This document shows positions 41,371-52,070 of a DNA stretch of 61,240 bases, in pieces. The stretch's first letter is position 1. Each line of letters begins with the position of its first letter. The stretch comes from Candidatus Bathyarchaeia archaeon (lineage in GTDB: Archaea; Thermoproteota; Bathyarchaeia; 40CM-2-53-6). The stretch covers positions 1 through 61,240 of the forward strand of contig JBEKPE010000002.1 of NCBI GenBank assembly GCA_049521055.1, given 5' to 3'. The position numbers were made by a program, and so were the translations under genes. The notes under the pieces were generated by a model. That model had not been told where the DNA came from and did not search any database. It saw only the letters and a program-made list of their open reading frames with translations.

Positions 41371-41533
41371 TTCTCATTCCCAACCTACTGAAGAAGCTGC
41401 CAGAGAGGAACCATGCAACATAAGGCTTCTGTTACCTCTACGGTTGACGGGCTGGTTTAACAGAACCCAACATGCGTATTCTGCTCAGGTAATCGATTAC
41501 AGGCAGAGTCGCCTGACGCAAGGCGGATAATGC
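41371..41533. ncRNA. Candidate structured RNA in the L44e-S27e spacer
   Basis: Three stems: TTCTGTTA/TAACAGAA; TCTGC/GCAGA enclosing the palindrome GTAATCGATTAC; and CGCCT/AGGCG. Confidence 0.35.
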
Positions 41534-50047: not shown

Positions 50048-50416
50048 CTACGCCCGCGGAAGACGTTCCGCCGCTAGTTTCAAGAGGTCGGATAATCCCG
50101 CTTGAGGCCCATCTGGGTTCTGGGTTAGTACGTGAACGCTTTCTTCGATTGTTAGGAGCTGTTTGCGGTAAGCTTCCATTAACAACGATTCGGAAGCGTT
50201 TGCAAGGTCCTTCTTCGATAATCGCGTCCCAAGGTATTGCCTTAGGCCGGCTATCTTGAACGCTTCGGATAGGATCTTGTCGCTGACCTTCACCCCTTTT
50301 GGGTGGCCGCTGATCTGTGTTAATGCGAGTGAGTATACGAAGTTAATGAAAGCGTCTCCCAAGCTCGCAAGCTGCCGATCGCGCACGGCGCGTTGAATTG
50401 GTTCTACGCTACTCAT
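50048..50416 (-). CDS. Archaeal RNase III-like domain protein
   Basis: LASLGDAFINFVYSLA, KVSDKILSEA, KKDLANASESL. Confidence 0.75.
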   Translation of the reverse strand: MSSVEPIQRAVRDRQLASLGDAFINFVYSLALTQISGHPKGVKVSDKILSEAFKIAGLRQYLGTRLSKKDLANASESLLMEAYRKQLLTIEESVHVLTQNPDGPQAGLSDLLKLAAERLPRA

Positions 50417-50700
50417 CAGGCAGGCTCGACGGCCTTAGCGAACTTCTCGTTGAATTCCTTGTTGAGTTCCTGCACGTTCGCGAGTGCGTTTAACAGTGTC
50501 TTCTCGGGTGAGACTTCACGTTTCGTTCTGACATAGACGATGCTCGAGCGAATGAGGGGATGCGGTTGATCGTAGCCGGCCAGCTCAACGTTCTTGTCTT
50601 CGAGCAGAACGTTTTGTAGTAGATTGCAGAATGTGTGATCTTCGCCGATTATTTCGAGCCTAAGCTCATTTTTCGACTTTGATAGAACCTTAACTTCCAC
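50416..50700 (-). CDS. rpoL: RNA polymerase subunit L (Rpo11)
   Basis: GEDHTFCNLL, AGYDQPHPL. Confidence 0.96.
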   Translation of the reverse strand: MEVKVLSKSKNELRLEIIGEDHTFCNLLQNVLLEDKNVELAGYDQPHPLIRSSIVYVRTKREVSPEKTLLNALANVQELNKEFNEKFAKAVEPA

Positions 50701-51286
50701 TTCTCTCCACCTCTACCTCTGGTTTCATTAGATCTTCTGCGAGTCTTCTCCTTTCAATGTTTCCACAAGAGGGGCATTGTAGTCTCCGGTTCGTAAACTC
50801 CAATACACTACCACACCTTGAACAGAACGCTTTGATTACACCTAACCCGCGTCCCGCCGTTGTTAGTTGTGGGATTCGGTTAGCCATGTCGATTACTCGA
50901 GCGCGAATAATGTCTCCAGCCTTACAAACATCCGACATGCTCCGTTCATACCTTGGGCTGGATGAAGAGATGTAAAGTATTGCTGTGAATGGAGTTTGGA
51001 TGGCCTTATCGTCAATTTTCCAGATGTTTACGGTAGCCATCTTCTCTGAAGTATGAATTACGGAGGCAATGATTGTTGTTCCTTCCTTCGGAAGTAGAGC
51101 CGTCCGCGTTACAGGCACAACTGTCACCCTCTTGTTCTTCAGATCGATTCGTGCGTTACCGGTGTAGTTGGCGTATATTGTGCCCTCAGTTTCATATGTC
51201 CCGGCACCGGGCAAGAATTGTTCTATCACGCCTATCTTATCGCCCGGTAGTACGGGTTGAACCATTTCATTTGGTGCCTTACTCAA
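50690..51286 (-). CDS. csl4: Exosome RNA-binding protein Csl4
   Basis: VLPGDKIG..EQFLPGAG, S1 domain GDIIRARV, LGVIKAFCSRCG...CPSCGNIERRRLA. Confidence 0.95.
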   Translation of the reverse strand: MSKAPNEMVQPVLPGDKIGVIEQFLPGAGTYETEGTIYANYTGNARIDLKNKRVTVVPVTRTALLPKEGTTIIASVIHTSEKMATVNIWKIDDKAIQTPFTAILYISSSSPRYERSMSDVCKAGDIIRARVIDMANRIPQLTTAGRGLGVIKAFCSRCGSVLEFTNRRLQCPSCGNIERRRLAEDLMKPEVEVERSGS

Positions 51287-51307
51287 ACCTCATTACCCTT
51301 TACCTAG

Positions 51308-51369
51308 GCAATCACCCCTCGAATTATCACGTGCCGACTGGATGTCGGCTGAGTTGGGTTGGTGATTGC
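51308..51369 (-). ncRNA. Candidate structured leader RNA / sRNA upstream of csl4
   Basis: A 9-bp perfect stem GCAATCACC/GGTGATTGC encloses a 6-bp hairpin GCCGAC/GTCGGC, just downstream of a TATA box. Confidence 0.45.
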
Positions 51370-51398
51370 GCAGATTCGCGTTCGTTAGCTGCAGCCCA

Positions 51399-51407
51399 CT
51401 ATATAAG
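51399..51407 (-). promoter_or_regulatory. TATA box for the csl4-rpoL transcript
   Basis: CTTATATAG on the minus strand, about 30 nt upstream of the hairpin. Confidence 0.6.
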
Positions 51408-51425
51408 CACGGATTAAAATTCCGG

Positions 51426-52070
51426 TCAAGCTCGGAGGATTCGGAACACGTCTACCTCAACAAATCGTTTCGGTTTTCTGTGGAACGAGAATTGATGCGG
51501 TATCTCCATCTTCGGGCTCATAATTCGTTCCCCCTTGAGCCCTTGATTTCCTAACCAATGCCCGAGAAAGCTGCGCGTTGAGGATTTGTGAATACTGTAG
51601 ATGACGGATGCTAGGTTTTGGGCGCATTGTAGGAATTGAAGGTCTGCGTGAGGTTGCTTGGTCCCGAAGGGCGGGTTCATGAGAACCGTATCAAAGCTAC
51701 CTCGAATGATCCCGATATCTCCCACGACCCAATCCACATCTACGCCGAGAACCTTCGCGCTTTGTGACGCGACGCGAATGCTTGAGGAGTCTATGTCTAC
51801 ACCAACAATTCTACTAGCGCCGAGAATTGAGGCGCCCAACGCCAGCCTACCGGTTCCAGTTCCAAGATCGAGCACGCGTTTCTCTTCGATGTCATCGTGC
51901 GTATAACAAGCGGTGAAGAGAATTTCGGCGGCTAGGTTGGCTGGGATGGTGTATTGTTCGAGGGCGACTTCGGGTTTCGGGTGGGGTTTCACTTTCTGTA
52001 ACGCGATTGCCAAGTCGTGTTTGCGGATTTGGATGGGTCGGGTCGGCAAGGCAAGCTGCCTTAATGCCAT
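51426..52070 (-). CDS. METTL5-family RNA N6-adenine methyltransferase
   Basis: LEQYTIP, VLDLGTGTGRL, MNPPFG, FHRK. Confidence 0.92.
   Translation of the reverse strand: MALRQLALPTRPIQIRKHDLAIALQKVKPHPKPEVALEQYTIPANLAAEILFTACYTHDDIEEKRVLDLGTGTGRLALGASILGASRIVGVDIDSSSIRVASQSAKVLGVDVDWVVGDIGIIRGSFDTVLMNPPFGTKQPHADLQFLQCAQNLASVIYSIHKSSTRSFLGHWLGNQGLKGERIMSPKMEIPHQFSFHRKPKRFVEVDVFRILRA

Follow-up and report, generated by a model that had tools for sequence, protein, structure and literature searches.

The spacer between a METTL5-like methyltransferase gene and csl4 in a Candidatus Bathyarchaeia archaeon carries a TATA box followed by a long hairpin, and the question raised by this locus is what purpose the hairpin serves. 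The original prediction, made for a 61,240-nucleotide stretch of contig JBEKPE010000002.1 (hereafter the window, meaning the whole stretch analysed), placed the structure in the promoter-proximal leader of csl4-rpoL and proposed that it is either an autoregulatory 5' UTR or a separate guide RNA, possibly one bound by L7Ae. Our comparative analysis confirms that the hairpin exists; it is probably a control element specific to its lineage, located at the 5' end of the csl4-rpoL mRNA. We favour a reading in which the structured leader RNA of the csl4-rpoL-(RNase III-fold)-Endo_dU operon would act in cis and post-transcriptionally, on translation or mRNA stability. To this reading, with its inferred mechanism, we assign a probability of roughly 0.5.

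All coordinates proposed for the hairpin, its stems and the TATA box match the minus-strand sequence (Table 1), and the position in a promoter-proximal 5' leader is borne out by the TATA box upstream and the csl4 start codon downstream. The hairpin (51308-51369) is 62 nucleotides long, begins 30 nucleotides downstream of the canonical TATA box, and is followed 21 nucleotides past its 3' end by the TTG start codon of csl4 (51286). Archaeal transcription usually starts some 26-27 nucleotides from the TATA box, and the csl4 transcription start site (TSS) was predicted from this distance, which yields a leader of about 90 nucleotides. A rough genome-wide profile places TATA-like motifs at -36 to -45 and Shine-Dalgarno (SD) motifs at -11 to -15 relative to start codons. 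Thus, typical leaders in this organism are about 10-15 nucleotides long, and the csl4 leader is exceptional in its length.

Table 1. Features of the csl4 leader and its flanking genes, listed from upstream to downstream on the minus strand (coordinates are those of the window)
Feature	Coordinates	Strand	Basis or remark
METTL5-like methyltransferase gene, upstream	51426..52070	-	Stop codon 51426-51428; synteny with csl4 kept in genus
TATA box CTTATATAG, csl4 operon promoter	51399..51407	-	Read from sequence
Conserved block TGGGCTGCAGCTAACGAA (genus consensus approximately GGGCTGCAATCTAACG), TATA box to predicted TSS	51381..51398	-	Most genus members
Predicted TSS zone (G51377/A51376) and conserved 5'-terminal CGAAUCU	51372..51378	-	TATA distance
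P2 5' arm GCAAUCACC (GCAATCACC as DNA), like the 16S 3' tail (anti-SD-like)	51361..51369	-	Read from sequence, folded
CTC, complementary to GAG	51351..51353	-	
Apical stem-loop GCCGAC-AUCCA-GUCGGC	51333..51349	-	Read from sequence, folded
GTGATA	51325..51330	-	
GAG, complementary to CTC	51318..51320	-	
SD-like tract GGGGUGAU, overlapping P2 3' arm	51311..51318	-	Best anti-SD complement in leader
P2 3' arm GGUGAUUGC (GGTGATTGC as DNA)	51308..51316	-	Perfect 9-bp complement; covariation
Proximal GAGGU abutting csl4 TTG	51284..51291	-	Read from sequence
csl4, exosome cap subunit	50690..51286	-	Pfam ECR1_N, E = 1.9e-12; weak EXOSC1 match
rpoL	50416..50700	-	Pfam RNA_pol_L_2, E = 1.1e-21
RNase III-fold protein gene (PF11469), third operon gene	50048..50416	-	Pfam E = 3.9e-20; homolog of PDB 1ZTD

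The hairpin consists of a 9-bp basal stem, called P2 here, and an apical stem of 6 bp (GCCGAC at 51349-51344 and GTCGGC at 51338-51333) that closes an ATCCA loop. These two helices are separated by an asymmetric internal loop. A 79-nucleotide stretch including the hairpin folds with a free energy of -29.8 kcal/mol, compared with -17.95 +/- 3 kcal/mol for dinucleotide shuffles (z = -3.95), and none of 200 shuffles was as good. When the whole leader is folded by partition function, pair probabilities are 0.87-1.0 in P2 and in the apical stem. The predicted CUC/GAG pairing fares less clearly, wherein the two trinucleotides are indeed complementary and pair in 91% of cells in the nearest clade, but the pair probability is only about 0.03 and the pairing is not thermodynamically predicted. 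There is no second copy of the element in the genome, as both arm words are intact at the csl4 leader only. Elsewhere in the window, a 12-bp palindrome, GTAATCGATTAC, in the L44e-S27e spacer (41480-41507, plus strand) resembles the P2 arm words G[CU]AAUC/GAUU[GA]C.

A strong promoter located directly upstream of a stable structure, together with the word GUGAUA, could indicate an independent small RNA that is transcribed from the TATA box and ends before csl4. It would be a box C/D or H/ACA guide, or a K-turn RNA bound by L7Ae. Archaeal L7Ae carries an autoregulatory K-turn in its own 5' UTR, and the csl4 hairpin resembles this element and the guide RNAs in being an archaeal, promoter-proximal structured RNA with a GUGAU-like word. 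However, the hairpin lacks the K-turn geometry, box motifs and ACA of these RNAs and matches none of them in Rfam. The original prediction had placed the C-box-like GUGAUA in the 3' arm, but it sits instead in the 3' strand of the internal loop, and the word is kept only in the immediate clade. A K-turn has a 3-nucleotide bulge followed by tandem sheared G-A/A-G pairs, for which GA is needed on both strands beside the canonical stem. In the csl4 internal loop, AACCCAACUCA faces ACGUGAUAAUUCGAGG, with no GA beside either stem and none opposite GUGAUA. In box C/D RNAs a terminal stem unites two boxes, RUGAUGA close to the 5' end and CUGA close to the 3' end. Neither UGAUGA nor CUGA is present on the minus strand between 51300 and 51380, and there is no Rfam snoRNA or sRNA match at E <= 10. 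In archaeal H/ACA RNAs an ACA triplet immediately follows the basal stem, and the upper stem carries a K-turn or K-loop. In this case the basal stem is followed by CCUAGGUAAAGG, which contains no ACA, and the upper stem is a simple helix of 6 bp capped by a 5-nucleotide loop.

The search of RNA families that had been recommended returned nothing for this region, in that Rfam 15 gave no match at gathering thresholds in the whole window and none at E <= 10 in 51150-51550. In addition, the window sequence has no T-run 3' of the hairpin, and no other promoter-like element is found in the 21 nucleotides before the csl4 start. We consider an independent small RNA barely credible at this locus.

To evaluate conservation, csl4 leaders of the same Bathyarchaeia genus were compiled from genomes and from peat or soil metagenomes, which yielded 83 distinct sequences. 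A DNA similarity search of 40 relatives gave only 5 alignable matches, and therefore leaders were collected through Csl4 synteny. Csl4 homologs are present in 60 of 61 related genomes, and the METTL5-csl4 arrangement is kept at 22 genus loci from 23 genus genomes; no orthologous csl4 match was found in G004, whose genome is incomplete (75%). Common to the 83 leaders are the TATA box, the block between this box and the TSS, the sequence CGAAUC[UA], a variable middle and a conserved start. The TATA box is of the CTTATATA[CG] type (TTATATA), with CTTAAATA (TTAAATA) as the minority form, and lies at a similar distance from the hairpin in 83 of the 83 leaders kept, where extraction retained only leaders with a TATA match and dropped those without one. 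There are just 3 occurrences of CTTATATA[CG] in the 2.36-Mb genome. The conserved block may be a promoter-proximal element or a factor-binding site. Its GCAATC word is directly repeated in the P2 5' arm, 23 nucleotides downstream. At the predicted TSS, CGAATC[TA] is kept across the genus leaders.

The start region TTGAG[TC]AA is likewise kept across the genus. In about 8 lineages ATG replaces TTG at the same position, which confirms the TTG as the start codon of csl4. There is no conserved upstream open reading frame (uORF) or N-terminal extension of Csl4 in the window or the genus leaders. An in-frame stop is located 2 codons upstream of the TTG in the window, and the ATG of a 4-codon uORF is not conserved.

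Covariation in P2 was computed on a MAFFT alignment of the 66 long leaders. Standard pairs make up 81.5% of P2 cells, whereas displacing the 3' partner by 1-3 columns lowers this figure to 30-50%. Double substitutions are observed at 7 of the 9 pairs. The number of double-change cells is 49, versus 25 +/- 4 after shuffling, and none of 500 shuffles reached 49. There are 34 distinct arm pairs in which at least 7 of the 9 positions are paired. Examples are GCAAUCACC/GGUGAUUGC, GAAAUCACU/AGUGAUUUC, GAAACCACU/AGUGGCUUC and GCAACUACU/AGUAGUUGC, and further variants are GCAAUUACU/AGUAAUUGU, GAAAUUACA/UGUGAUUUC and GUAAUCGCU/AGUGAUUGU. The structural conservation in relatives on which the original prediction depended is thus found for the basal stem, which compensatory and wobble changes have preserved in most of the genus's lineages. 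Whole-leader folding z-scores are unremarkable in most relatives, indicating that what is conserved is the P2 helix rather than the overall fold. With a promoter and a start codon on its flanks and compensatory substitutions in its arms, P2 has the features of a generic conserved cis-regulatory 5' UTR helix.

Conserved inverted arms near a promoter could also be a DNA operator for a transcription factor. In line with this explanation, the arm sequences are conserved, and the GCAATC word is also present between the TATA box and the TSS. However, P2 contains 73 G-U cells and 35 A-C cells under a strand-neutral inclusion rule, and the spacing between the arms, about 25 nucleotides in leaders with a deleted or replaced apical stem, reaches about 45-50 nucleotides in others, with no helical phasing. 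The excess of G-U over A-C and the widely varying spacing argue for an RNA helix on the mRNA strand rather than a DNA operator. Moreover, the double changes preserve complementarity and not a fixed half-site. We therefore regard a DNA operator as very improbable, and both this and the guide RNA interpretation as largely excluded.

The components of the hairpin have been retained to different extents. In the nearest clade, pairing is maintained in 94% of cells for P2 and in 83% for the apical stem. The apical stem is deleted in L062 and replaced in L025, and other clades carry different, unrelated hairpins in its place. P2 itself is not universal, and a short-leader clade, L043/L045 and the L031-type clade have each lost or remodelled it. 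In a midpoint-rooted Csl4 tree, lineages with P2 are found on both sides of the root and carry at least 8 distinct arm versions. This distribution suggests that P2 was probably ancestral to the genus.

No P2-type hairpin was found among the csl4 leaders examined from other families, in which csl4 overlaps the METTL5 gene, sits behind a different gene, or is preceded by a leader with unrelated sequence. The absence from other families and the losses in several clades indicate that the element is genus-specific and dispensable. In several other Bathyarchaeia families (L050, L053 and L153-L179), csl4 overlaps or abuts the METTL5-like gene and has no promoter or leader, and in some genera csl4 is found instead behind a double-zinc-ribbon gene. 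In one other family (L046 and L048), the csl4 leader has a basal stem, GAUGCCAC/GUGGCA..AUC, around an inner 7-bp hairpin. Its sequence is unrelated to P2, and a single, apparently compensatory change separates the two genomes. Judging by these sequences, the leader may have an analogous architecture.

The relation of P2 to the SD sequence suggests where the helix might act. No SSU rRNA was found in the organism's own genome (G000, a 193-contig MAG), and the 16S rRNA 3' end was taken from three relatives of the same genus, in which it is GGAUCACCUCCUU. In the window, the tract GGGGUGAU pairs with the anti-SD at -12.9 kcal/mol, versus -6.8 kcal/mol for the tract adjacent to the start. The latter, GAGGU, has zero spacing to the csl4 TTG. 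In most lineages that carry P2, its 3' arm is the best anti-SD complement, at -9 to -13 kcal/mol, and the SDs near the start are weak, with a mean of -5.9. Clades without P2 have a good SD at the canonical distance. The SD-like tract held by P2 is more than 20 nucleotides upstream of the TTG, and the near-start SD is located outside P2. Across the genus leaders, P2 has a fixed position relative to the TATA box and the start codon and ends 14-21 nucleotides before the latter, which we take to be close to the upstream edge of the ribosome footprint.

These observations suggest a model in which P2 would act post-transcriptionally on the csl4 operon mRNA alone, most likely at translation initiation. 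In this model, P2 locks the strongest SD-like tract of the leader, GGGGUGAU, against its anti-SD-like 5' arm (AAUCACC). The ribosome would be left with a weak SD and a TTG start, directly at the 3' foot of the helix. The helix would then form the 5' boundary of the ribosome-binding region, wherein an upstream SD-like or standby tract is sequestered.

Hairpins that sequester the SD or provide a ribosome standby site are a general class in bacterial mRNA leaders. The csl4 element resembles them in that a stable 5' UTR helix, just ahead of the ribosome-binding region, joins an SD-like purine tract to an anti-SD-like strand. It differs in that its host is archaeal, in that the tract is more than 20 nucleotides from the start and hence is not a working SD, and in that some csl4 lineages keep the helix without SD-like sequence. 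In L095, L105 and L072 the arms are not SD-like, yet the helix has been kept by compensatory changes. This suggests that the helix itself is under selection, and that this outweighs any mimicry of the SD.

RNAalifold suggested an additional long-range pairing of the 5' CGAAUCU with the SD and start codon. Tested against a background of coding sequences, this pairing reached p < 0.05 in just 27% of the long leaders, and in the ensemble computed for the window its probability is zero. Attractive in individual clades but lacking statistical support overall, it is at most a possibility.

Additionally or alternatively to an effect on translation, burial of the transcript's 5' end in the helix might shield it from 5'-end-dependent decay. 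In its strongest form, this possibility would make the hairpin purely a 5'-terminal stabiliser against exonucleolytic decay, wherein its SD-likeness is incidental. Stem-loops of this kind are known from the E. coli ompA leader and from the aprE and ermC leaders of B. subtilis. Like them, the csl4 hairpin lies near the 5' end, which here is predicted, and has a conserved helix with a loop whose contents are unimportant and free to vary; the difference is that the decay machinery is archaeal. P2 begins 8-9 nucleotides past the predicted TSS in the genus leaders. In the minimum free energy (MFE) fold of the window, AUCUG pairs with UAGGU (51306-51302), which lengthens the basal stem and brings pairing to within 0-2 nucleotides of the predicted 5' end, with extension possible to +1/+3. 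However, such a basal extension by the 5'-terminal nucleotides is weak and is not significant overall across relatives, despite being good in some clades (GAAUCA/UGAUUC and AAUCUGA/UCAGGUU). Furthermore, a pure stabiliser leaves the sequence conservation of the arms unexplained, and its 5' end rests on a predicted TSS. A solely stabilising role is thus unlikely in our estimation.

The main rival to the post-transcriptional helix that we favour is a protein-binding RNA operator for feedback control, in which an operon product binds or cleaves the hairpin and thereby sets the stability or the translation of the mRNA, by analogy with the E. coli rnc leader or with ribosomal-protein operators. Conservation of the P2 arm sequences (G-N-A-A-U-C-A-C) exceeds what pairing requires, and this excess would fit a sequence-specific protein site equally well. 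The operon offers two candidate ligands. One is the PF11469 protein, which could bind the interrupted duplex of about 18-21 bp, and the other is Csl4, which has S1 and Zn-ribbon domains. Throughout the taxonomic order the arrangement csl4-rpoL-PF11469-Endo_dU is kept, with Endo_dU/DUF99 also downstream in the operon and Dph2 upstream beside the METTL5-like gene according to Pfam. Also in keeping with a protein site, the stacked stems of the window and of the L073-type clade add up to some two turns of helix.

However, the PF11469 gene is present in the operon at 30 of the 30 loci examined, including those of the family without a leader (L050 and L053), and hence provides no co-occurrence signal. 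In addition, the loops and bulges through which such sites are usually recognised show no conservation from clade to clade. The PF11469 protein has 122 amino acids and is a homolog of P. furiosus 1ZTD. It has an Asn aligned to an Asp of 1ZTD that is presumably a catalytic position in RNase III, and the Glu residues that we take to open the RNase III signature also appear to be missing from it. Judged by these residues, its cleavage activity is doubtful. Overall, we consider a protein-binding operator to be rather unlikely.

A special case of this rival recalls the rnc operon of E. coli, whose leader is cleaved by RNase III to autoregulate its own operon. The csl4 leader is likewise a long interrupted duplex that leads an operon with a gene for an RNase III-fold protein. 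It differs in that the PF11469 protein appears from its sequence to be short of part of the catalytic acidic set, and in that its gene is found at loci without the hairpin as well. We judge it decidedly unlikely that the duplex is a feedback target that the PF11469 protein binds or cuts to set the level of csl4-rpoL mRNA. If true, this would give the archaeal PF11469 family its first function and would represent an archaeal counterpart of rnc autoregulation.

In a limited check of the literature, we found no report of a csl4 leader element, and a paper on iCLIP of the archaeal exosome does not mention one (PMC7667871). The restriction of P2 to one genus and its repeated loss suggest that it fine-tunes expression and is non-essential. 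To our knowledge, few structured archaeal 5' UTR elements with covariation support are known, and we know of none in the uncultured Bathyarchaeia or before an operon for exosome and RNA polymerase subunits. The csl4 leader helix, being supported by covariation, adds a new candidate to the familiar kinds of cis-regulatory RNA motif. It provides a compact and testable case of post-transcriptional control in a lineage where most leaders are about 10-15 nucleotides long, and its natural compensatory arm variants constitute a ready-made mutational data set.
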